Assembly: GCA_964490895.1 (NCBI GenBank)
Contig: CAZBEI010000118.1
Location: 482-64,481, forward strand
Direction: 5' to 3'
From: an uncultured Bdellovibrio sp.
Lineage (GTDB): Bacteria; Bdellovibrionota; UBA1018
Length of the DNA stretch: 64,000 bases
Part shown: in pieces, positions 20,281-55,077 of the stretch
How positions within the stretch are numbered: the first letter of the stretch is position 1
Layout of the letters: every line of letters begins with the position of its first letter
Program-made: the position numbers and the translations under genes
Notes under the pieces: model-generated
The model's database searches: none
Told to the model about the DNA's origin: nothing
What the model saw: the letters and a program-made list of their open reading frames with translations, nothing else

Positions 20281-20411
20281 TTAAATTAGGCAATAACATT
20301 AGCAGCTTAAAACATCATTTGACGAAAACGGTGCATTTATTTATTATATAACGATAGTTCAAGTGCTTTATTGGGGGACGTATGAAGTCAGGGGTGCTAA
20401 AAATAATAAAC
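20281..20411 (+). repeat. partial, diverged copy of the ~170-bp promoter-plus-start repeat (copy A0)
   Basis: Carries TTGACG-N17-TATTAT and ATG AAG TCA GGG GTG CTA AAA ATA ATA AAC (MKSGVLKIIN), matching the start of the 793-aa gene at 22670. The reading frame is cut after 10 codons by the MITE. Confidence 0.6.
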
Positions 20412-20988
20412 GTGACTGTTCAGCCTCATTCTTCAGGCTCGGTGTAAAAACTACGGCGGCCATTCCGGTGTGGGCCAGTTATTTTGAAATAAAATATAAA
20501 GAAACTCTTGGATGTTTTTCTGAAAGTATCTTTTAATACCCACAAGATCTCTTCCCCACTCCACAATTCGAGACCAAGCGAGATCATCCCAAAAGCGTTT
20601 TAGGGCTGGCTGCCCCTTCTTTGCTCCTGTCATCACTCGGGCAATGAGGCCTGTTCTTTTCTCTGCTTCTTAAAGAAAGGAAAATGCATCTGTTTTTCTT
20701 GTTTTTTCATTCGCCTGTCCCGGTTGTGTTGTATAGGATACGAGCAATGTTATTTCAACCCTATTTTTTTATCCAATGGTCTAATTATTTTATTTTAAAA
20801 ACATAGTAATTTTTCATTTTGTAAACTTTTGCAAACATTTATAAACTTTTTCACAGCTTTTTATGCTGTGCGAACACACATGCACTTGTAAGGCCTGAAA
20901 ATATCTTTTTTTTATAAGTCCACCCCGGGGGCCACCGGGGGTCTATCGCTTTTTAAACCAAGCCTGCAGAATGAGGCTGAACAGTCAC
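20412..20988. mobile_element. non-autonomous MITE-like element with ~40-bp imperfect terminal inverted repeats
   Basis: Left end GTGACTGTTCAGCCTCATTCTTCAGGCTCGGTGTAAAAAC, right end ...AAACCAAGCCTGCAGAATGAGGCTGAACAGTCAC as its inverted complement. Length is 577 bp, the only internal ORF is a 61-aa one without motifs, and there is a GC-rich palindromic core (CCCCGGGGGCCACCGGGGG). Confidence 0.6.
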
Positions 20989-21014
20989 GGTTTTTTTTAT
21001 TATTTTCAAGCGCT

Positions 21015-21184
21015 GGGCTCTCAATCGATACCATGAAAGAGGTCGATGAAAAATTAAAACACGTTCTTGATCTTAACTAATTAAGCAATAAAATAAACAA
21101 CCTAGGAGGATTGTTGACTGACTTAAGTTAGTTATTTATTATATATAAATATAGTTCAGATATTTTATTGGGGAACGTATGAGA
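21015..21184 (+). repeat. ~170-bp direct repeat copy A1 (flanks ATPase paralog 2 on one side)
   Basis: About 90% identical to 22511..22680, including TTGACT-N17-TATTAT and an ATG. Here the ATG opens only a 9-codon ORF. Confidence 0.7.
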
Positions 21185-21204
21185 GATGGCTATGTGGCTT
21201 TTGG

Positions 21205-22386
21205 CTAACTCCAATAACTCCACGGCAAAAGACAGACTCCCTGTTTCGGAAGATGGACGGTATTGACAGGGGCGAGAAGAACAGCCCGTTTGACTCCAAG
21301 AGCCTTCATAGCGCCTGTCAAGCTGCGCGCATGGTACTCCATTTGAGAAGGGGCAATTGTTTCGCTCATGATTTTTATCGGTATGTTTTGCCAAACAAGA
21401 TCAATCACAGGACCATGAATGCTTTTATAATAATTTTTACGCATCACAAACCTTTGGTACTCATTAAAACAAAAGATCTCGTTTAATAAATAATGCCTAG
21501 CAATAGAGAGACTGACTTCTGGTCCAGTTTTTATTGGGGAAAGATGGAATGCTAGCCCAGAATCTCCAAACATCCAATGGTCATTACCCACTCCAGGTTC
21601 CTGGACAGTAAATCTCCTGAGAAAAAAAATATTTTCAAGTGCCTGAATGTAACGTTTTGCTTTTCGCTTGTCACCTCTCACATAACTCAAGGAGGGATAA
21701 TCAGCGTTAGGAAGAGCTTTGGCTAGCATCTGAATTAACGAAAAACAATAATCAGGATCAAACCCCTTTCCGTAAGCACGCGCTGCATCGCGGACAATTG
21801 TTGTGTCAAGCCAGTTATTCCAATATTCCTTGCACATATTCTCGTCGCGAATAAAGGCAGGAACTGGGAGACCTCCTGATCTCATTTGCACAGACAAATC
21901 TTCAAACTTAAATCGTGGTGTCGAGGGAGACAGGAAGTGTGACTCATTTTTAATAGTTTTCTGAGATTGTTGATGGATTTCACCAAAACACATGGGGTAA
22001 AGATGCAACAAGCCAATTCTACCAGTTAATGATTCTCGAACACCTATTTTTTGTGAAAACGCAACTGATCCGGTCAAAAACCACTGGCCAGGGATTTTTT
22101 TTCTGTCTACCAGTGATTTAATCGAATCAAATAATAGGGGTGCTTTTTGAACTTCATCAAGTACGGTAGGGGATCCCTGGTGTCTACTTAGAAAAACGCG
22201 AGGTGCGGCTAGGGCTTCAGCTCTCATTTCTTCGTCATCAAAACTGAGATAGTTTTTAATCCCAATGCGATCTCTCAGCAAAGTAGATTTGCCAACCTGT
22301 CTCATCCCGAGTACTCCAACAATTGGCCAGAAACTAGCCATTTTTTTTATTTTTACCTCACTAAAACGAGGTCTTTGGTGTGGCAT
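21205..22386 (-). CDS. AAA+ ATPase with DUF4143-like domain, COG1373 family, paralog 2 (nuclease-like motif degenerate)
   Basis: 393 aa with P-loop GMRQVGKSTLL and Walker B TVLDEVQ. The C-terminal region VIDLVWQNIPIKIMSE lacks the E-x-K seen in the other three paralogs. Confidence 0.65.
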   Translation of the reverse strand: MPHQRPRFSEVKIKKMASFWPIVGVLGMRQVGKSTLLRDRIGIKNYLSFDDEEMRAEALAAPRVFLSRHQGSPTVLDEVQKAPLLFDSIKSLVDRKKIPGQWFLTGSVAFSQKIGVRESLTGRIGLLHLYPMCFGEIHQQSQKTIKNESHFLSPSTPRFKFEDLSVQMRSGGLPVPAFIRDENMCKEYWNNWLDTTIVRDAARAYGKGFDPDYCFSLIQMLAKALPNADYPSLSYVRGDKRKAKRYIQALENIFFLRRFTVQEPGVGNDHWMFGDSGLAFHLSPIKTGPEVSLSIARHYLLNEIFCFNEYQRFVMRKNYYKSIHGPVIDLVWQNIPIKIMSETIAPSQMEYHARSLTGAMKALGVKRAVLLAPVNTVHLPKQGVCLLPWSYWS

Positions 22387-22510
22387 AAGTAATATAAATA
22401 ATATGCACTGAGTTGAAAAAAAATGATAGCACTTTTTTAGACAATCACTCGGTTACACACCAGGGCTATTTATGCTTTAGAAAAGGCCCTTCTAAAAAAC
22501 CACATCATGC

Positions 22511-22680
22511 AGCTCTCAATCGATACCATGAAAGAGGTCGATGAAAAATTAAAACACGTTCTTGATCTTAACTAATTAGGCAATAAAATAAACAGCTTAG
22601 GAGGATTGTTGACTAATTTAAATTAGCTATTTATTATATATATAGTTCAGATATTTTATTGGGGGACGTATGAAATCAGG
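22511..22680 (+). repeat. ~170-bp direct repeat copy A2 (promoter, RBS and start of the fibrinogen-domain gene)
   Basis: Direct repeat of 21015..21184. It lies between the divergently oriented ATPase paralog 2 and the 793-aa gene. Confidence 0.7.
22609..22637 (+). promoter_or_regulatory. sigma-70-like promoter of the 793-aa gene
   Basis: TTGACT-17 nt-TATTAT about 30 nt upstream of the GGGGGA RBS and the ATG at 22670. The same architecture occurs in copies A1 (21114..21142) and A0. Confidence 0.5.
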
Positions 22681-25051
22681 GGCATTAAAAATAATAAATA
22701 TAATGACCAGAAACCACCGTGGGAATACCCTCATGCTTGCCCTCCTGTTTACGGGCGCAGCAAGCGTGATTGGCTTAGGTATATTGGCCGCTATTGAAAC
22801 AGGACGCAAGCAGCAGGGAATCCGGATTGAAGAGAGTAACCCAGCGGCATTTCTTTCCTTACTGACGGGTAAGACTATTGAGGACATTTCTAAAAATTAT
22901 TACTGCCCTCAAAAAAGCACCAATGAAACTATCACTTTTACTCAATTTTTTGATAAGCTGAGAACAGACGGAAAACTCAACTCTAGAGGCCATCTGTCTA
23001 TTCCTCTTTTAGGCAAGTCAGAATATCTCATTAAAACTCCCAATGGAGTAGTGAGATCAGAAATAGATCCAGCATCAGAGGTTGCACTAATAGGAGCTGG
23101 AACACCCAATGAGCAGCTGGTGATACAAATTACGGTATCACTCTGCAGGTATGCACAAGCTGCAGGAGTTGCATGTCCTCCTGCACTTATTCTCCCCTCA
23201 ACTGTTTATAAAGCTTATATTAATAACACGAAAATACTGGAGCCATGTGGGAGCGCATTGCCTACTCCAACTCCATTTCCTGCTTCTTTTGTATTTATTG
23301 ATTCTGCAACAAATCTGCCTGCGCAAAAAGACGGCGCAAATCATATCTTAGAAGTTGGGGAAAGATATTTTGTTTTAGCTTCGATTGGGAAACCACCAGG
23401 CACAAGTGTAAATTATATTGTGAATTTTTCTCCAAGCAGTGGACCCTACTTTCAGCTCACATCCACTGGAGCAACAGCTCTCGTAGATGCAAGCGGAAAA
23501 TTCAGAACTACAGATCTCCATTTTAATAGAAACGCAAATCCTAACCTCAATGTTCCTCCGGGTCCTTATATTGCAAGTGTTGGAATCGGGACAGACCCCG
23601 TCCTCACAACCCCTGTGGTCGTAGTTCAGCCTGCCTGTGTTAACACAAGAAAACCACAATCTTGTTTGCATCTATTAGAATTAGATCAGAGCAAAAAAAA
23701 TCAGGATGGAATTTATACTATCGACCCAAACCAAGATGGAAAAAATCTACCAGTTTATTGTGACATGACAACAGATGGAGGGGGGTGGACACTTTTTGCA
23801 AATAATAACAGTCCAGGTTTTCCTGGAGGATGTCTGAGTGGTTTAAACCCCACTTTAGCTCTTGGAACCGATAAACGGACTGTTAACGCTCTGGCCTCAA
23901 AACCACCAAACAGTGTTGCAAGAATGGTCATAAATGGAAGTGCATCTAACGGCCAACCCTTTTCCTTTGATGTAAAACAAAGTGGTCTAACAGGCGCATT
24001 TCAGCCCAATATGGGGTGCAATATACCTAGCGAAGGTAATGCTCTTTACCAAATTCCTAACTTTACTCAGGTTATTTCGCAATCAAATGCTCAGGTTAGT
24101 TCTGGAAGTAATCCACTGGGAGTGCGAGTGGACTCCGGGGGTACTGCCGATTTTCAAATTCTTGGAGGTAAAGGAATAAGAATTGGAACGGGATTTCCAC
24201 CCGTACTTCCCCCCCGAAAAGCAACGGGAATTCTTTGGATGCCACAGAGTAACCAAGCGCTTCCATATGCAAATCAAATGAATATCCGATGGTTATGTTA
24301 TAGCCCTCAAAATCTATGTCCGACACTCCATCCTGATACTGGAAATAGAGTGACTTCGATGCAGCTTTTTTACAGAGAAGATGTGGCTGATTTACCCGAG
24401 GATCCATGTATTCCTCCCGGAGCAGTTTTGTGTGAGCTAGCTCACGGAGGACCCGGCTCTCCTGGTGGGAGTGTTGCCTGTCCAGGCAGGAAGAAAATCT
24501 TAGGCGGTGGATTTAGATATTCGAGTGATGGGACTTTTCCGTATCAAAATGGTTGGGGAGCAACTGGTTACACAAGTGGAATACCCCGTGAAGCTTTTGC
24601 TATTTGCTGTAACCATGTGGGATCTCTTGATTTGAAGTCTGGACGACAGGTAAGCAATCTCTATCATAATGTAGCTTTTGCACCCATTCAGTGCGAAAGC
24701 GATGAAATCGCTGCGAGCGCAGGGGGGATTAGTTCTTCTGGTGGATCTGTGTCTTGCTCTCCTGATATGAACAATATTTCGAAATTTAATTGTAATATGG
24801 TAGCAATTCCAAACGACCTTTTTCTGTATGCGATGTGCTATAAGAAGCCTCCAATTCCGTCTAAATTTGAATGGATTAAATCTTCTGGTTCTGTTGCTAC
24901 ATGTAAATCAGGAACTAAACTTATTTCTGGCGGGTTTTCTTGCAGTACAGGAGTTTTTGGTGTTGGCTATGCTATTCCAAACTTAATCAACAACACCTAT
25001 TCCGTAAGCTGTGCTGGATCAACATATGCACTCTGTGTGGACGAAAATTAA
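22670..25051 (+). CDS. large secreted/anchored protein with a fibrinogen-related domain and duplicated Cys-rich C-terminal modules, probable adhesin/lectin
   Basis: 793 aa with a hydrophobic N-terminal anchor or signal. DGIYTIDPNQDGKNLPVYCDMTTDGGGWTLFANNN matches the fibrinogen C-terminal domain hallmark (VYCDM-TDGGGWTV). Two C-terminal repeats follow the pattern C.G.K.L.GGF...C. Confidence 0.7.
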   Translation: MKSGALKIINIMTRNHRGNTLMLALLFTGAASVIGLGILAAIETGRKQQGIRIEESNPAAFLSLLTGKTIEDISKNYYCPQKSTNETITFTQFFDKLRTDGKLNSRGHLSIPLLGKSEYLIKTPNGVVRSEIDPASEVALIGAGTPNEQLVIQITVSLCRYAQAAGVACPPALILPSTVYKAYINNTKILEPCGSALPTPTPFPASFVFIDSATNLPAQKDGANHILEVGERYFVLASIGKPPGTSVNYIVNFSPSSGPYFQLTSTGATALVDASGKFRTTDLHFNRNANPNLNVPPGPYIASVGIGTDPVLTTPVVVVQPACVNTRKPQSCLHLLELDQSKKNQDGIYTIDPNQDGKNLPVYCDMTTDGGGWTLFANNNSPGFPGGCLSGLNPTLALGTDKRTVNALASKPPNSVARMVINGSASNGQPFSFDVKQSGLTGAFQPNMGCNIPSEGNALYQIPNFTQVISQSNAQVSSGSNPLGVRVDSGGTADFQILGGKGIRIGTGFPPVLPPRKATGILWMPQSNQALPYANQMNIRWLCYSPQNLCPTLHPDTGNRVTSMQLFYREDVADLPEDPCIPPGAVLCELAHGGPGSPGGSVACPGRKKILGGGFRYSSDGTFPYQNGWGATGYTSGIPREAFAICCNHVGSLDLKSGRQVSNLYHNVAFAPIQCESDEIAASAGGISSSGGSVSCSPDMNNISKFNCNMVAIPNDLFLYAMCYKKPPIPSKFEWIKSSGSVATCKSGTKLISGGFSCSTGVFGVGYAIPNLINNTYSVSCAGSTYALCVDEN

Positions 25052-25564: not shown

Positions 25565-26782
25565 CTATATAAGAGCCTGTAAAAATTTCCAAGCTGGCAG
25601 AACCCGTATCCCTCCATTTTTATAGTCGCCATCTGAGTTGAGAACAACCTGGTAGCTTTCTTTAATTTCTAGTCGTGTATTAAAATAGATAAGTTGTGGA
25701 GAAATTGCCGTATCACTCACTTTTGCCTCAACAGTGAACCAAGGTTTGCCGTCACAGAGAACCAAAAAATCTACCTCTCTTTTTTCTTTGTCTCTTAAGT
25801 AACAAAGCTCCATTTTATAGCCGGCATAATCAGTATAGAAATGGCAAAACTTCAAAAGATGGCTTGCGACGAGATTTTCAAAACGAGCGCCTGGATTAGA
25901 AATGATGGCCCAATCCCAAAGATACATTTTGGGTTCCTTTTTAAGAGAGCGGGTTTTTTTAACTGCAAAGGGTCTCATTCGATACAAAAAATAAAGTCTC
26001 TCTAATATGTCAATCCAATGTGAAATGGCTTTGTGCGAAGTGTCCAAATCCTCTCTTAAGGAATTAATTGACAGTGGGGAACCGGCTCGAGAGGGTAAAA
26101 TATCACATAACGTTTCAATCCCAGATAAGTCAGGAAGATTTTCTAGATCTCGAATGTCTTCTTTAAAAAAACGGTCTAATCTTTCATTCTGCCAACGCCT
26201 CAACTTACGTTGACTTTTCTTTAAAAAAGGCTCTGGAAAACCGCCAAACTCTATTAAGTCTGATAAAGTAGAAATGCTTTCATTTTTTTTACTTAAATCT
26301 TTCGGAATCTGTAGTGGAGCAAATGGTACTATTTCCTTTTCGCCCGGTAGAGAGAGCCCGAGAGCCTCTGCTAAAGTAAAAGGGTGCATCCGATAGAGGT
26401 GGTATCTTCCCTGCATAGAGTCTCCTCCTTTGCGATACACGTCTAATCTTGCGCTTCCTGTCACTAAAAATTTTCTATCGTCTAGGTGTTTATCATAAAT
26501 ACCTTTGACGAAATTTTTCCATTTTTTGTATTTGTGAATTTCGTCAAAAATGATGACCTCGGCATCTGACTTCCAAAGTGACTTTAGAATTCTTTTTCGG
26601 TCTTCTCTGTTGTCCCAATTCAAATAATCCACTTGACTTGGGGAGAACAAATTTTTTGAAAAAAAGGTTTTTCCAACTTGTCTAGGACCTGCTAAAAAGA
26701 CCATCTTTTCTTTTAAATCCTCTAAAACTGGCTTTGATAAATATCTTTCCAATGGGCAATGTCCTTTCTCAAGTAAGCTCAA
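25565..26782 (-). CDS. AAA+ ATPase fused to a DUF4143 (PD-(D/E)xK-like) domain, COG1373 family, paralog 3
   Basis: 405 aa with P-loop GPRQVGKTFF, Walker B IIFDEIH and C-terminal EVDFLVLCDGKPWFTVEAKVS (D...E-x-K). Confidence 0.7.
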   Translation of the reverse strand: MSLLEKGHCPLERYLSKPVLEDLKEKMVFLAGPRQVGKTFFSKNLFSPSQVDYLNWDNREDRKRILKSLWKSDAEVIIFDEIHKYKKWKNFVKGIYDKHLDDRKFLVTGSARLDVYRKGGDSMQGRYHLYRMHPFTLAEALGLSLPGEKEIVPFAPLQIPKDLSKKNESISTLSDLIEFGGFPEPFLKKSQRKLRRWQNERLDRFFKEDIRDLENLPDLSGIETLCDILPSRAGSPLSINSLREDLDTSHKAISHWIDILERLYFLYRMRPFAVKKTRSLKKEPKMYLWDWAIISNPGARFENLVASHLLKFCHFYTDYAGYKMELCYLRDKEKREVDFLVLCDGKPWFTVEAKVSDTAISPQLIYFNTRLEIKESYQVVLNSDGDYKNGGIRVLPAWKFLQALI

Positions 26783-26823: not shown

Positions 26824-26858
26824 ATGACTTTTTTATCTAGTTGGATAAAAAAGTCATA
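26824..26858. terminator. perfect 14-bp stem hairpin (ATGACTTTTTTATC-tagttgg-GATAAAAAAGTCAT), probable bidirectional terminator or cassette-end structure
   Basis: Perfect inverted repeat with T/A runs, located between the peptidase stop (26868) and the ATPase paralog 3 start (26782). Confidence 0.5.
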
Positions 26859-51169: not shown

Positions 51170-51305
51170 TTAAATTCGCACTCCTTGTGATTTTATTTTC
51201 TATTATTTTAGGCGGAAAAGTGTGGGTGTTTCCAGAAAAAGGACGATTTATTATGGAGGAAATGACACAACACTAGCCATGCATAGTGGGGGGAGTTTAA
51301 AAAAA

Positions 51306-51397
51306 CAGTGACTGTTCAGCCTCATTCTGTAGGCTCGGTGTAAAAACGGGAGTGGCCGCCGTAGGTTTTACACCGAGCCTGAAGAATGAGGCTTAGG
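51306..51397. mobile_element. foldback remnant of the 20412-20988 MITE (both TIRs separated by 17 nt)
   Basis: GTGACTGTTCAGCCTCATTCTGTAGGCTCGGTGTAAAAAC-gggagtggccgccgtag-GTTTTACACCGAGCCTGAAGAATGAGGCT. The spacer is the complement of CTACGGCGGCC found just inside the left end of the long copy. Confidence 0.6.
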
Positions 51398-51714: not shown

Positions 51715-52878
51715 ATGGTCGACCGACTCTTTCGGGGCACAGGCTCAAACAGTTTTTTTATTTTTGGACCAAGGGGTGCTGGAAAATCCTACTGGCTGAA
51801 AAATAAATTTGCAAATAGGAGTGACGTTTTTTGGCTAGACCTGTTAGACGATGCCACTGAGGAGGCCTATTCTCAAAAACCAGGGCTACTGCGAGAAAAG
51901 CTACTTAAAAAGCCGTATCCTCACGTGGTCATCGACGAAGTGCAAAAAATTCCAAAGCTGTTGGACATCGTACATCTGTGTATTGAAAATCTAGCTACAA
52001 AGAGAACCCAGTTTATCATGACAGGCTCAAGCTCTCGCAAGCTTAAGCGAGGTGGGGCAAATTTGCTGGCTGGGCGGGCATTTCTTTATTTCATGCACCC
52101 GTACTCAGCAAGAGAACTGGGAGTAGATTTTGATCTCTCATCTGCTTTGTGCTACGGCATGCTTCCCAAGGTTCATGAGCTCGGAACCCCCGAAGATAAA
52201 AAAGAGTTCCTGAAGTCGTATGTCAGAAACTACTTAAAAGAGGAGATACGGATTGAACAGCTTGTTCGAAAACTAGATCCATTTCGGAGATTTCTCGAAG
52301 TTTCAGCGCAGTGCAATGGCAAGATTATCAATTTCAGCAACATTGCCAGAGATGTGGGCGTAGACGATAAGACGGTTGAGAATTACTACTCCATCTTAGA
52401 AGATACTTTGATTGGATTTTTCTTGCCTGCTTTTCACCGATCGATTCGTAAACAGCAGCATCAAGCGCCAAAGTTTTACTATTTTGATACTGGGGTGAAA
52501 AAAACTCTTGAAAACACACAAGACGTTCTTGTTGTCCCTGGTACCTATGAGTATGGCAATGCATTCGAACATTTTATTTTGTTAGAAGTCATGAAACTTA
52601 ATGAGTACTCACGGAAAGATTATAGATTTTACTACCTGCGTACGAAAGCTGGTGTCGAAATTGATTTGGTCATCGAAAGACCAGGAATGCCCTATGCATT
52701 AGTGGAGATCAAATCCTCAAATAGAGTTCAAGATCGAGATTTAAATGCGCTGCTCAGTTTTTCGAAGAACTTTAAAAAACCAGATCTTTTTTGCTGGTGC
52801 AATGAAAAAACAGGCCGCATTTCTAAGGGTGTGACTCTACTCAATTGGGCAGAAGGCATCAAAGAAGTGGGTTTGTAG
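51715..52878 (+). CDS. AAA+ ATPase fused to a DUF4143 (PD-(D/E)xK-like) domain, COG1373 family, paralog 4
   Basis: 387 aa with P-loop GPRGAGKSYWL, Walker B VVIDEVQ and C-terminal GVEIDLVIERPGMPYALVEIKSS. Confidence 0.7.
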   Translation: MVDRLFRGTGSNSFFIFGPRGAGKSYWLKNKFANRSDVFWLDLLDDATEEAYSQKPGLLREKLLKKPYPHVVIDEVQKIPKLLDIVHLCIENLATKRTQFIMTGSSSRKLKRGGANLLAGRAFLYFMHPYSARELGVDFDLSSALCYGMLPKVHELGTPEDKKEFLKSYVRNYLKEEIRIEQLVRKLDPFRRFLEVSAQCNGKIINFSNIARDVGVDDKTVENYYSILEDTLIGFFLPAFHRSIRKQQHQAPKFYYFDTGVKKTLENTQDVLVVPGTYEYGNAFEHFILLEVMKLNEYSRKDYRFYYLRTKAGVEIDLVIERPGMPYALVEIKSSNRVQDRDLNALLSFSKNFKKPDLFCWCNEKTGRISKGVTLLNWAEGIKEVGL

Positions 52879-52986: not shown

Positions 52987-53994
52987 TCACAGCAGCAGGG
53001 GAACATACGGGTTTTTTTTTCGGCTGACAAACTCAAAAGCAGCGGTTTGAGGGGCGTAAAATCGGGCTTCGGGTTTTCCGTTTTTATAAACGACGAGTGT
53101 CATCTCAGAGAGTTTTGAGTTAGAGCAGTAAAGCAGTGAGCCATCGGTGTCCTCATAAGTGATGCCAGCAAAACTCTTAAGTTCAGCTTTGATTTGTCCC
53201 TTAAATGTGAAAGGAGGAGACTCGGCTTCGAAATTCCACTCGGAGAGCTCGCTTTGAGAGCGAGAACGGATCGCGCTCCACAGGGAATTGAGGTGATAGG
53301 CTTTGTCTTGATAGTTGAAATAAAAGGTAGAAAGTTTTGGAGAGGGAACCCCACAAAGCAGTTTGGCTCTCGCACTGAGTCCTTCGAACACCACTTGAGC
53401 AGGTTGGCCTTTTTCGTCTAAGAAATAATTGCAATGGGACCAGACCCAAGAGTGTCCATTTTTTGACCCAGCGAGGTGGGCTTGCATTCCTGGAGATTGT
53501 TCCCAGCTATAACTTTCTCCATTGACTAAACAGGTTCCAGAAAAAGAAAGATTTTCGTGGACTGTCAACGCTTTGTTTTTTATGACTCCCGTTTTTGAGA
53601 GTGTTTTTGGAACAAGGTCGAAACATTCTCCATTCAATGACTTTATTTCTAAATTCCACTTGAGATGTTGGCCTTTGGCCTCAATCATACCTTGGGTGTG
53701 GTGGTCGGTCAAAAAACTTTCTTGGATTTGTATTTTATTGTTTTCTCCTTTGAAGCAAGCCAGCGGGAAAGTCTGTTTTAAAGCCGTTTTAAGAATTTCT
53801 CCATTTTCTTTTTTTTGAAAAAAGATCCCCCAGACCTCCGAAATTTTTTTGTAGCCATTTTTGCTGAGGAGAAGTGTAAATCTGAGCCAAAGGGCTCTGT
53901 TTTGAGCAGGTTCGTTGAGTTTGAGATACCAAACTTCCTGAAAACTTTTTCTATTTTCTTTGAGGTAATAAGATTCATTAGTCATCGCCTGCAC
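52987..53994 (-). CDS. hypothetical protein (Trp-rich, no recognised motif)
   Basis: 335-aa ORF transcribed divergently from the wHTH-NTase pair across a palindrome-bearing 90-bp region. Confidence 0.45.
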   Translation of the reverse strand: MQAMTNESYYLKENRKSFQEVWYLKLNEPAQNRALWLRFTLLLSKNGYKKISEVWGIFFQKKENGEILKTALKQTFPLACFKGENNKIQIQESFLTDHHTQGMIEAKGQHLKWNLEIKSLNGECFDLVPKTLSKTGVIKNKALTVHENLSFSGTCLVNGESYSWEQSPGMQAHLAGSKNGHSWVWSHCNYFLDEKGQPAQVVFEGLSARAKLLCGVPSPKLSTFYFNYQDKAYHLNSLWSAIRSRSQSELSEWNFEAESPPFTFKGQIKAELKSFAGITYEDTDGSLLYCSNSKLSEMTLVVYKNGKPEARFYAPQTAAFEFVSRKKNPYVPLLL

Positions 53995-54038
53995 TGTAGC
54001 ACTAATTTTTATCTATTTTAAAGTAATTTATAGATGTT

Positions 54039-54076
54039 GACCCTAATACGAGTCTGTATTACCCTGTATTAGGGTC
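54039..54076 (+). promoter_or_regulatory. palindromic operator GACCCTAATAC-N16-GTATTAGGGTC with an internal third half-site GTATTACCCT, overlapping a TTGACC -35
   Basis: Perfect 11-bp inverted repeat ending 9 nt before the wHTH ATG (54085). Confidence 0.5.
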
Positions 54077-54084
54077 ATATTGCG

Positions 54085-54417
54085 ATGTTGCTCTCAGGTT
54101 TATTTGGAAATGAAACTGCCGAAAAAGTACTGCTCTATTTCGCAAACTATCAGTTTGGATACCCTAGAGGCATTGCCTCAACTTTTCACATTGCGGTAAG
54201 CCAGGTCCAGCGCCAACTCGAACGTCTAGAGCGCGAGGCCATTCTCTGCAGCCGGTTAATGGGGCGAATGCGCATCTATGAGTTAAACCCTCGATATCTG
54301 TTTCGGAGTGAATTAGATGCTCTATTAAAAAAAGCATTAAATAACCTACCCCCAATGATTATTAATAAGTATTTTACACAACGTCGCCGTCCCAGGCGCA
54401 GAGGCAAGCTATTATGA
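54085..54417 (+). CDS. small winged-helix DNA-binding protein (putative antitoxin/regulator)
   Basis: 110 aa with basic C-terminal tail RRRPRRRGKLL. Its stop overlaps the next gene's start (ATGA). Confidence 0.45.
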   Translation: MLLSGLFGNETAEKVLLYFANYQFGYPRGIASTFHIAVSQVQRQLERLEREAILCSRLMGRMRIYELNPRYLFRSELDALLKKALNNLPPMIINKYFTQRRRPRRRGKLL

Positions 54418-54953
54418 ATTTGCTGATTCATGAAAACACCACTATCGTTGAATTAGGTGCCACGGTTTGCGAAGCACTTCGAGAAGTTGGGATTGATGCT
54501 TTCCTCTCTGGAGGTGCAGTTGTTTCGATTTATACTGAGAACAAGTATCAAAGCTATGATCTTGATTTTGTAACCATCGCAGACCGCCGTGAGATCCACA
54601 AAATAATGAAGCAGCTTGGATTTCGTCAAACAGAGTCGCGTCTTTACACTCACCCCAGAACTCAATTTGCCGTCGAATTTCCTGGTGCAGCTTTTCTAAT
54701 CGGTGATCAACTCATCCATGAATTTGCAGAACTCAAATTACCTCAGGGCACACTCAAGCTCCTTACCCCTACTGATTGCGTCAAAGACCGCTTGGCATCT
54801 TATTTTCATTGGAGTGACAGGCAAGGACTAAATCAGGCTGTTGCAGTAGCTCTTGCTCATCCGATAAAAATCAAAGAAGTTGCACTCTGGTCAAAAAGAG
54901 AAGGGATGCAAGCAAAGTTCACAGATTTTTTGACCGCGATTAAAAAATCCTAG
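54414..54953 (+). CDS. nucleotidyltransferase-fold protein, AbiEii/AbiGii-toxin-like
   Basis: 179 aa. LSGGAVVSIYTENKYQSYDLDFV resembles the AbiEii motif GGTAL...Y...R.S.DIDF. Confidence 0.45.
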   Translation: MNLLIHENTTIVELGATVCEALREVGIDAFLSGGAVVSIYTENKYQSYDLDFVTIADRREIHKIMKQLGFRQTESRLYTHPRTQFAVEFPGAAFLIGDQLIHEFAELKLPQGTLKLLTPTDCVKDRLASYFHWSDRQGLNQAVAVALAHPIKIKEVALWSKREGMQAKFTDFLTAIKKS

Positions 54954-55077
54954 TCCATTCATCGAAAATGATAGGGATCAAAAAATCGCGGGAGGACAAG
55001 GAGTTGAAATTGGAAATCCCAAAAAAGCCTTTAGCTATGCGATGCAAAACAAATGGATACAAGCTAAAGACGAGGCT

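Follow-up and report, generated by a model that had tools for sequence, protein, structure and literature searches.

What is the role of two small, overlapping genes located between a tocopherol-cyclase-like gene and a gene for a 137-aa membrane protein in an uncultured Bdellovibrio sp.? The genes lie in a 64,000-nucleotide stretch of contig CAZBEI010000118.1 (assembly GCA_964490895.1), hereafter the window, and encode a winged-helix protein of 110 aa and a protein of 179 aa with a nucleotidyltransferase (NTase) fold. The initial annotation, made from the sequence alone, had put them forward as a shortened AbiE-like abortive-infection or type IV toxin–antitoxin module. In AbiE and MenAT, the NTase toxin extends the 3' ends of tRNA and thereby blocks translation. 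The analysis reported here points to an undescribed NTase toxin–antitoxin-like module that would be autonomous, autoregulated and mobile, a reading whose probability we put at about 0.48. The 110-aa protein is proposed to be an autorepressor of the ArsR/SmtB/MarR type and, at the same time, the partner of the NTase (putative antitoxin). Judged by its sequence features, the locus appears to resemble AbiE and MenAT in its working, yet it lies outside those families. The features in question are:

54085–54417, + strand: winged-helix gene, 110 aa, from the listing of open reading frames (ORFs)
54414–54953, + strand: NTase gene, 179 aa; minimal pol-beta-fold nucleotidyltransferase with a helical C-terminal domain; proposed effector (putative toxin)
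54382–54414, + strand: codons for the C-terminal tail of the winged-helix protein, R100-R-R-P-R-R-R-G-K-L-L110, predicted disordered
54037–54077, no strand: promoter–operator; outer perfect 12-nt inverted repeat plus two ACC-N9-GGT-type sites
53995–55077, no strand: inserted segment, its extent set by comparison with syntenic relatives, from the start of the tocopherol-cyclase-like gene to the stop of the 137-aa membrane-protein gene

Two coupled genes forming a mobile unit

The gene pair was found as annotated, with a 4-nt ATGA overlap that is read directly in the sequence and bears out the translational coupling proposed for it; the NTase motif quoted at the time, LSGGAVVSIYTENKYQSYDLDF, is present. 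In homologous loci, which were retrieved by means of the NTase alone, the winged-helix gene was located directly upstream and on the same strand in 81 of 81 cases, and the overlap was exactly 4 nt in 66 of the 75 fully resolved pairs. Clustering of the flanking ORFs yielded no third gene family recurring around the pair.

Counting one genome per species, the pair was present in at least 204 species, a lower bound from a pattern-limited scan, with a patchy distribution across more than 10 phyla. Hosts were Bdellovibrionota, Parachlamydiales and other Chlamydiota, Campylobacterota, Actinomycetota, Nitrospirota, Planctomycetota, Gammaproteobacteria and Desulfobacterota-type metagenome-assembled genomes (MAGs), among others, and a single Actinomycetota assembly contained two copies (L049 and L064). 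Eighteen plasmids carried the pair, 15 of them from Leptospira and the others from Bdellovibrio, Sulfurimonas and Sulfurospirillum. In Leptospira interrogans plasmid pLiSL32 it is placed between parB and parA, and in the Sulfurospirillum plasmid it adjoins insertion sequence (IS) elements and recombinases. In other Bdellovibrionota chromosomes the pair was found amid unrelated housekeeping genes, at a site that differed each time.

Comparison of the window with two relatives (L095 and L096) showed how the pair is placed. In these relatives the gene order is Secretin, T2SSE ATPase, a 150/162-aa protein, the tocopherol-cyclase-like gene and a protein of ~310 aa (followed by TldD). In both, the gene for the 150/162-aa protein abuts the cyclase-like gene or overlaps it, and no pair intervenes. 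This order recurs in the window with two additions, namely the pair, which separates the 137-aa gene from the cyclase-like gene (~53995–55077), and an ATPase of the AAA_14/DUF4143 type. By this synteny, the pair has been inserted into an operon that is uninterrupted in the relatives. Neither terminal repeats nor a shift in composition were found at the insertion, and Rfam and tRNA scans detected neither an RNA gene nor a tRNA integration site in the vicinity of the module. The pairing, the patchy spread, the plasmids and the insertion together bear out the toxin–antitoxin-like genomic behavior that had been anticipated, and indicate, as far as sequence comparison goes, that the pair is an obligate, horizontally mobile unit.

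At the other end of the pair, imperfect palindromes (GATTTTTTGACCG/CGATTAAAAAATC, and a 17-nt pair with a 30-nt loop) span the NTase stop codon at 54924–54987. No T-run follows them, and the terminator scan made no call there.

A conserved probable operator overlapping the promoter

The region upstream of the winged-helix gene contains an outer inverted repeat, TGACCCTAATAC-N16-GTATTAGGGTCA, at 54038–54049 and 54066–54077, whose arms are 100% complementary. It had been described as a perfect palindrome with 11-nt arms situated 9 nt before the first ATG. The palindrome is indeed perfect; its arms are one base longer (12 nt), and it ends 7 nt before the ATG, or 8 nt when the 11-nt arm is considered. 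The third half-site noted then is accounted for by a direct repeat, CTGTATTA, at 54054–61 and 54064–71. The operator repeat exceeds chance. Across all 64 kb of the window, perfect inverted repeats whose arms measure 12 nt or more, with 30 nt or less between them, number just five, and only 2 of 5000 shufflings of the 126-nt upstream region reached 12-nt arms. A −35-like TTGACC (54037–42) and, 17 nt on, a −10-like TACCCT (54060–65) coincide with half-sites; these hexamers were read by eye and are unlisted by a consensus scan.

The 75 nt upstream of each homologue were aligned at the start codon for 79 upstream regions. A common design emerged, in which a short AT-rich linker joins two ACC-N9-GGT palindromes. 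The motif ACC-N8–10-GGT-N4–8-ACC-N8–10-GGT was found in 37 of the 79 regions, versus 0.03% of shuffled or random windows, and in 35 of these 37 double sites the ACC-to-ACC spacing was 21 nt, equivalent to two helical turns. The ACC triplets of the window, at 54040 and 54061, are likewise 21 nt apart. Operator site 2 (54061–54075) is intact here, the right (inner) half of site 1 is degenerate, with GTC at 54052–54, and the perfect 12-nt palindrome is built from the two outer half-sites. The flanks of the half-sites co-varied with lineage, TGACC...GGTCA being typical of Bdellovibrionota and TACCAT...ATGGTA of Actinomycetota and Nitrospirota, and Campylobacterota operators were of an AT-only variant. 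Operator spacers were AT-rich at nearly all loci.

The position of the operator relative to the start codon also differed among phyla. In Bdellovibrionota (L004–L020 and L029) it ends at the ATG or within a few bases of it, and no Shine-Dalgarno sequence is present; in other phyla (L027–L081) a ribosome-binding site of the AGGAG type lies 3' of the operator. Since the operator of Bdellovibrionota reaches the start codon without a Shine-Dalgarno sequence, it is suggested that the mRNA leader is very short or absent in this phylum, the transcript probably being leaderless.

The double-palindrome design conserved among homologues supports the earlier proposal of an autorepressive operator lying over the promoter. 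The winged-helix protein very probably binds this operator and represses its own operon. The sequence argues strongly for autorepression by a pair of dimers, on the model of abiE, whose promoter repeats IR1 and IR2 are bound by AbiEi in negative autoregulation (PMC3985639).

A winged-helix protein with an invariant basic tail

The AlphaFold2 (AF2) model of the 110-aa protein, with a predicted local distance difference test score (pLDDT) of 84.7, comprises three helices and a two-stranded wing (H-H-H-strand-strand), two C-terminal helices and then a disordered tail, where pLDDT falls below 50 at residues 103–110. Foldseek matched it to ScoC, CzrA, SmtB, ZitR and SqrR, that is, to repressors of the ArsR/SmtB and MarR families, with which it shares fold, size and palindromic operators overlapping the promoter. 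Those families, by contrast, have no invariant Arg-rich disordered tail.

Sequence-based assignments were weaker. In Pfam the protein matched DUF2250 below threshold (13.6 bits versus a gathering score of 24.4), and DUF7342, also below threshold; 15 of 18 homologues matched DUF2250 (PF10007), with a best E-value of 2.7e-5. The score against the ArsR/SmtB family NF033788 of NCBIfam was 15.5 bits for a cut-off of 55, which leaves the protein outside that family. AbiEi families of Pfam were matched neither by the window protein nor by any of the 18 homologues. The PADLOC profile PDC-M05A was matched with an E-value of 1e-6, over positions 14–90 of its 201 only. PDC-M05 is a candidate system composed of an NTase and a HEPN protein (PMC12988326); what is shared with it is the winged-helix domain only, and no HEPN gene is adjacent to the pair. 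In PHROGs the protein corresponds to phrog_18520 (E 1.6e-17), a family of unassigned function. Winged-helix homologues of ~110 aa numbered 263.

Across 75 sequences, the most conserved stretch was the disordered C-terminus and not the recognition helix. Tail residues R100, R102, P103, R104 and K108 were identical in 75 of 75 pairs from more than 10 phyla, and the family consensus of the tail is RxRPR[RK]xGKPL. Two hydroxyl residues of the wing, Ser56 (71/75) and Thr62 (64/75), were conserved as well. The winged-helix proteins are basic, with a median isoelectric point (pI) of ~10.

Fusions of the winged-helix protein to the NTase were considered and discarded: the longer family members, including two of 298 aa, have low-complexity Arg/Pro-rich or read-through extensions without any Pfam domain, and are most likely mis-called ORFs.

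An intact nucleotidyltransferase of an uncharacterized family

The NTase was modeled by AF2 with a pLDDT of 93.8 and a predicted template modeling score (pTM) of 0.88, with four helices making up a C-terminal domain after the alpha-beta-alpha-beta NTase core. The model was compared with the PDB by Foldseek, using the query-normalized TM-score (TMq). The leading matches were the aminoglycoside NTase ANT(2'')-Ia (E 8e-5, TMq 0.54), the fungal NTase-like protein 5uvd (E 9e-5, TMq 0.64) and the toxin MenT1 (E 1.1e-4, TMq 0.59), the latter having the highest TMq of the three true MenT/ANT matches. LnuA, in the top ten, MenT3/TglT, MenT4, CCA-adding enzymes and TM1012 were also matched. A likeness to aminoglycoside NTases, which the initial annotation had named as counting against its proposal, was thereby half borne out, ANT(2'')-Ia being the best fold match and MenT1 essentially tied with it. 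With matches so nearly tied, fold alone cannot tell a toxin from a drug-modifying enzyme, as far as models go.

Residues of the catalytic site were conserved across the 75 pairs. S32-G33-G34 is followed, after 14 residues, by D49-L-D51, with G33 present in 75/75, G34 in 74/75, D49 in 75/75 and D51 in 73/75 sequences; position 88 was acidic in 75/75 (E in 59 and D in 16). S47 was Ser in 74/75 and Thr in 1/75, and is located in the AF2 model in a loop (41–48) between helix 34–40 and strand 49–53, before strand beta-2. Position 45 was Tyr in 71/75 and Phe in 4/75. In the C-terminal part, T118-P-T-D121 was conserved, as were K124 (74/75), D125 (75/75), R126 (74/75), D135 (75/75) and Q141-A142 (75/75); among more distant members (alignment A3) K124 is replaced by R or M. 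The proteins are near-neutral (median pI 6.5, range 4.4–9.6) and their invariant residues are mostly acidic. Together, the AF2 models, the Foldseek matches and the residue conservation bear out a winged-helix fold alongside an NTase fold with an intact catalytic site, and, given the G-G motif, the three carboxylates and the modeled fold, the NTase is in all likelihood enzymatically active.

A profile search retrieved 1962 clusters (50% identity) of NTase homologues at E ≤ 1e-3. The window protein itself scored 12.9 bits against DUF2204 (PF09970; E 0.085, residues 17–57), for a gathering score of 20.3. When 70 divergent representatives were scanned one by one against Pfam, 31 matched DUF2204 (best E 5e-6), 8 NTP_transf_5 (best E 3.8e-4), 3 DUF6036 (best E 0.016), 2 AbiEii (best E 0.0032) and 2 Aminoglyc_resit (best E 0.022). 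No PADLOC model was matched by the window NTase; AbiEii models of PADLOC were matched weakly by few family members (best E 8e-4), with unrelated models scoring comparably, and AbiEii was the sole nucleotidyltransferase family among the PADLOC models that family members matched. The Aminoglyc_resit (PF10706) and Lnu-type hidden Markov models (HMMs) gave no match to the window NTase, sequence searches of the PDB returned nothing significant, and the viral structure library gave no informative match. PHROGs assigned the NTase to phrog_13263 (E 3.9e-29), of unassigned function. By these searches, the nearest sequence families are the archaeal DUF2204 and DUF2250, both of uncharacterized function, and no functional description of DUF2204, DUF2250 or the related COG numbers was found in the literature. 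Public names of either protein were absent or limited to 'hypothetical protein', 'ArsR family' or 'winged helix-turn-helix domain-containing'. As judged by sequence, the pair has no place in any curated family library that was searched, and no published description of it was found.

Comparison with known NTase toxins

The small coupled bicistronic operon, the upstream DNA-binding partner, the patchy mobile distribution and the carriage on plasmids all fit the generic layout of a toxin–antitoxin locus. AbiE of Streptococcus agalactiae and Lactococcus is likewise bicistronic, with a winged-helix regulator preceding a pol-beta NTase and two inverted repeats in the promoter, and it is carried on mobile elements and stabilizes plasmids (PMC3985639; bioRxiv 10.64898/2026.01.19.700257). 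The label type IV used in the initial annotation is dated, AbiE having been reclassified as type VII (bioRxiv 10.64898/2026.01.19.700257). AbiEi is a two-domain protein (COG5340) of ~200–300 aa and AbiEii has ~290 aa, as against 110 and 179 aa here; in AbiEi, a loop of the C-terminal domain acts as the antitoxic element, whereas the protein studied here has, in the AF2 model, a single winged-helix domain and a basic tail.

Motifs I and II of AbiEii/DUF1814 read hG[GS]-x15-DhD, compared with a spacing of 9–13 in classical pol-beta enzymes (PMC3985639); the 14 residues between G-G and Asp in our NTase are close to the 15 of AbiEii. Auto-phosphorylation occurs at T65 in AbiEii, T39 in MenT1 and S78 in MenT3 (PMC11375011; bioRxiv 10.64898/2026.01.19.700257), and S47-x-D49-x-D51, with a hydroxyl residue in 75/75 sequences, matches this phospho-acceptor position. 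The K124-D125-R126-L-A-A-Y stretch and D135 are conserved, but fit neither motif III (KLxAaxxR) nor motif IV (+DxxD) as published for AbiEii (PMC3985639).

MenAT1 of M. tuberculosis (Rv0078B/Rv0078A), a short member of DUF1814, is closer in size: MenT1 has 184–194 aa, is among the top three structural matches, and a small partner is encoded immediately upstream of it. No significant sequence match links the two systems, however, and MenA1, which is short and helical, does not regulate its own operon (PMC11375011), in contrast to the winged-helix partner with a conserved operator described here. The catalytic pockets of MenT toxins are electropositive (PMC11375011).

Naturally broken alleles

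Five plasmids of L. noguchii (H4–H8) carry a genuine 4-nt deletion (TATC) by which the winged-helix protein ends at residue 86; the tail is lost and the NTase ORF is intact (L084 4880–4900 compared with L093). Sister plasmids H9–H13 have the intact winged-helix allele. The deletion allele might persist because coupling is lost, or because the DNA-binding domain that remains still represses the operon. The opposite pattern was found in an Oligoflexia MAG with a 73% identical pair (L029, 5993–6418), where the winged-helix gene is intact and the NTase lacks profile positions 46–77, including S47, D49 and D51, with a change of frame. This was counted in favor of a toxin as an instance of decay, and may reflect toxin inactivation or an assembly artefact. 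In L. mayottensis the locus is truncated by an IS5 element. The decay patterns point both ways on toxicity.

Interpretation and competing explanations

The locus bears the signature of a toxin–antitoxin or addiction module because of the pairing and coupling, the invariant disordered tail, the self-directed operator, the sporadic spread with plasmid copies near partition genes, and the insertion. In the mechanism proposed, the winged-helix protein would bind the four-half-site operator, likely as two dimers on one face of the DNA, and by covering its own promoter would repress the bicistronic operon. The NTase would be translated by coupling through the ATGA overlap and would act as a growth-arresting toxin that adds nucleotides to the 3' end of an RNA, tRNA being the likeliest target. 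The invariant Arg-rich tail would dock on the acidic active-site face and hold the NTase in check, and this docking may trigger auto-phosphorylation of Ser47. The module would then stabilize the DNA that carries it, abort phage infection, or both. The steps differ in strength. Toxicity of the NTase and its neutralization by the partner are a tentative proposal, held a little short of even odds. That the tail enters the active site, or that Ser47 is phosphorylated, is doubtful, and the fullest version, in which the pair would be the founding example of a widespread minimal NTase toxin–antitoxin family with the tail inserted into an acidic cleft, a mode of neutralization that AbiE and MenAT do not show, and perhaps triggering Ser47 auto-phosphorylation, is slightly more so. 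Taken on its own, tRNA as the target is unlikely.

Several observations weigh against a toxin–antitoxin module. None of the toxin–antitoxin, Abi or defense HMMs gave a significant match on either window protein. The Arg of motif II (R63 in AbiEii, R37 in MenT1, R76 in MenT3) is Tyr45 here, motif IV is not recognizable, and the near-neutral to acidic character of the NTase differs from the electropositive pockets of MenT. The fold tie of ANT(2'')-Ia and LnuA with MenT1 keeps alive, at the level of models, the reading of the enzyme as a small-molecule NTase. The tail-less L. noguchii allele is hard to square with a lethal toxin held by the tail only, and lowers confidence. The chromosomal copies are not in recognizable defense islands, viral collections contained few loci (0 in INPHARED and 3 in IMG/VR), and sequence conservation is unusually high for a toxin–antitoxin pair. 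Finally, the tail sequence RPRRxGKP presumably resembles the AT-hook core PRGRP, which would suit a role in DNA reading.

A small-molecule NTase under repressor control, adenylylating an antibiotic, xenobiotic or metabolite, with the ArsR/MarR-like protein as a ligand-responsive repressor, would account for part of these observations. The enzyme shares its best or near-best fold, its two-lobed architecture and its length of 179 aa with ANT(2'')-Ia and LnuA, two of 70 members match Aminoglyc_resit weakly, a pI in the near-neutral to acidic range is appropriate to cationic drugs, carriage on plasmids is as expected of resistance genes, and a tail-less Leptospira allele with an intact NTase poses no problem. 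Resistance NTases, however, are stand-alone genes with no obligate, coupled winged-helix regulator, whereas pairing was invariable here and the 4-nt overlap conserved; there is no sequence-level membership, the Aminoglyc_resit and Lnu-type HMMs missing the window protein, and the hosts are mostly environmental predators and symbionts, not drug-exposed lineages. The repressor has no evident ligand-binding domain beyond its fold of ~95 residues, and ligand sensing leaves the conservation of the disordered basic tail unexplained. ANT(2'') and Lnu enzymes are not known to have a Ser at the phospho-acceptor position. We consider this function quite unlikely. A non-toxic regulatory pair seems more improbable still. 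In such a pair the NTase would modify its winged-helix partner, for instance at Ser56 or Thr62, or make a nucleotide signal, tuning DNA binding, and the basic tail would reach into the minor groove as an AT-hook-like arm. The AT-rich spacers found at nearly all operators are what such an arm would read, the wing hydroxyls Ser56 and Thr62 are conserved, the tail-less allele is viable, and an NTase modifying its protein partner is known from HEPN/MNT systems (PMC7641770). But the tail has no hydroxyl acceptor, and the sole conserved target is the two-gene operon itself, with no third gene or regulon conserved, so that the pair would have no output; neither does this explanation account for the horizontal spread, the plasmid carriage by partition genes or the insertion into unrelated loci.

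The remaining candidate was the original one, a canonical but shortened AbiE abortive-infection system (AbiEi/AbiEii, COG5340/DUF1814). The bicistronic order of winged-helix gene and NTase, the double inverted-repeat operator, as in abiE (PMC3985639), the S-x-D-x-D-F motif, the extended G-G to D spacing and the few weak AbiEii matches all agree with it. Yet HMM searches of Pfam, NCBIfam and PADLOC gave no AbiEi or AbiEii match at E ≤ 1 for either window protein, DUF2204 and DUF2250 being clearly nearer, the 110-aa protein lacks the C-terminal domain of AbiEi, and the NTase the motif-II Arg and motif IV. Membership of canonical AbiE was rejected on these HMM and architecture tests and is very improbable.

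Neighboring genes and repeats

A 335-aa ORF transcribed divergently from the same control region does exist (52987–53994, from a GTG), but is likelier to be 332 aa long, starting at the ATG at 53985; on an identical contig (L082) the gene is called as 332 aa from that ATG. It is the resident tocopherol-cyclase-like gene, widespread in Bdellovibrionota, and in none of 82 loci was it beside the pair elsewhere, so it was rejected as a part of the module. That the two have an intergenic region in common is due solely to the site at which the module inserted.

The ATPase that had been placed beside the locus is located at 51715–52878 (+), on the other side of the cyclase-like gene, and is an AAA_14/DUF4143 protein matching the PADLOC candidate defense system PDC-S01 (E 7e-60). 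Because it is absent from L095 and L096, it is regarded as a separate insertion beside the same resident gene. An AAA_14 ATPase was adjacent to the pair in 3 of 82 loci, and a functional link to the pair was rejected. A paralogue, 21% identical, is found at about 25712–26698 (−), and two perfect 12-nt inverted repeats, TTTGACGAAATT-N21-AATTTCGTCAAA and ATGACTTTTTTA-N10-TAAAAAAGTCAT, at 26504–26548 and 26824–26857, just past the start of this second paralogue, may be operators or terminators.

The MITE (miniature inverted-repeat transposable element) remnant reported next to the pair corresponds to a palindromic, MITE-like element of ~95 nt at 51299–51393; it lies on the upstream side of the ATPase instead of separating the latter from the pair. 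Copies at 20398–20469 and 20950–21002 agree at 87–94% with one another, and Rfam returned only spurious miRNA-precursor matches on the hairpin. Direct repeats of 64–131 nt, each ending in '...GGGGACGTATGA', occur at 20322–22698 with spacings of ~0.8 and 1.5 kb; agreement is 81–95% for two of the three copies and 64% for the third, which suggests tandemly duplicated gene starts. In the Sulfurimonas paralvinellae plasmid (L086, 3079–4221), genes for reverse-transcriptase-like, gamma-glutamylcyclotransferase-family and DUF2130 proteins are located directly upstream of the pair and may form a small defense cluster.

Significance

Few phage-defense and toxin–antitoxin systems are as abundant as the NTase toxins of the AbiE/MenAT type, whose control has only recently been revised to antitoxin-induced auto-phosphorylation. 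The pair described here would be a far smaller, sharply conserved module of the same logic that current HMM libraries miss, on a scale of ~2000 clusters at 50% identity and at least 204 species, including plasmids of pathogenic Leptospira. Should the NTase prove non-toxic, there would still be an unexplained, obligately paired enzyme–regulator cassette that spreads horizontally. If the pair is a toxin–antitoxin system, the NTase-toxin superfamily would widen towards the archaeal DUF2204 and DUF2250, and 110 plus 179 aa would make a minimal, tractable system for studying neutralization and a Ser phospho-switch, together with a compact operator–repressor pair with a readable DNA code. If, in addition, Ser47 is auto-phosphorylated, the type VII principle would extend beyond DUF1814 to a DUF2204-related lineage.

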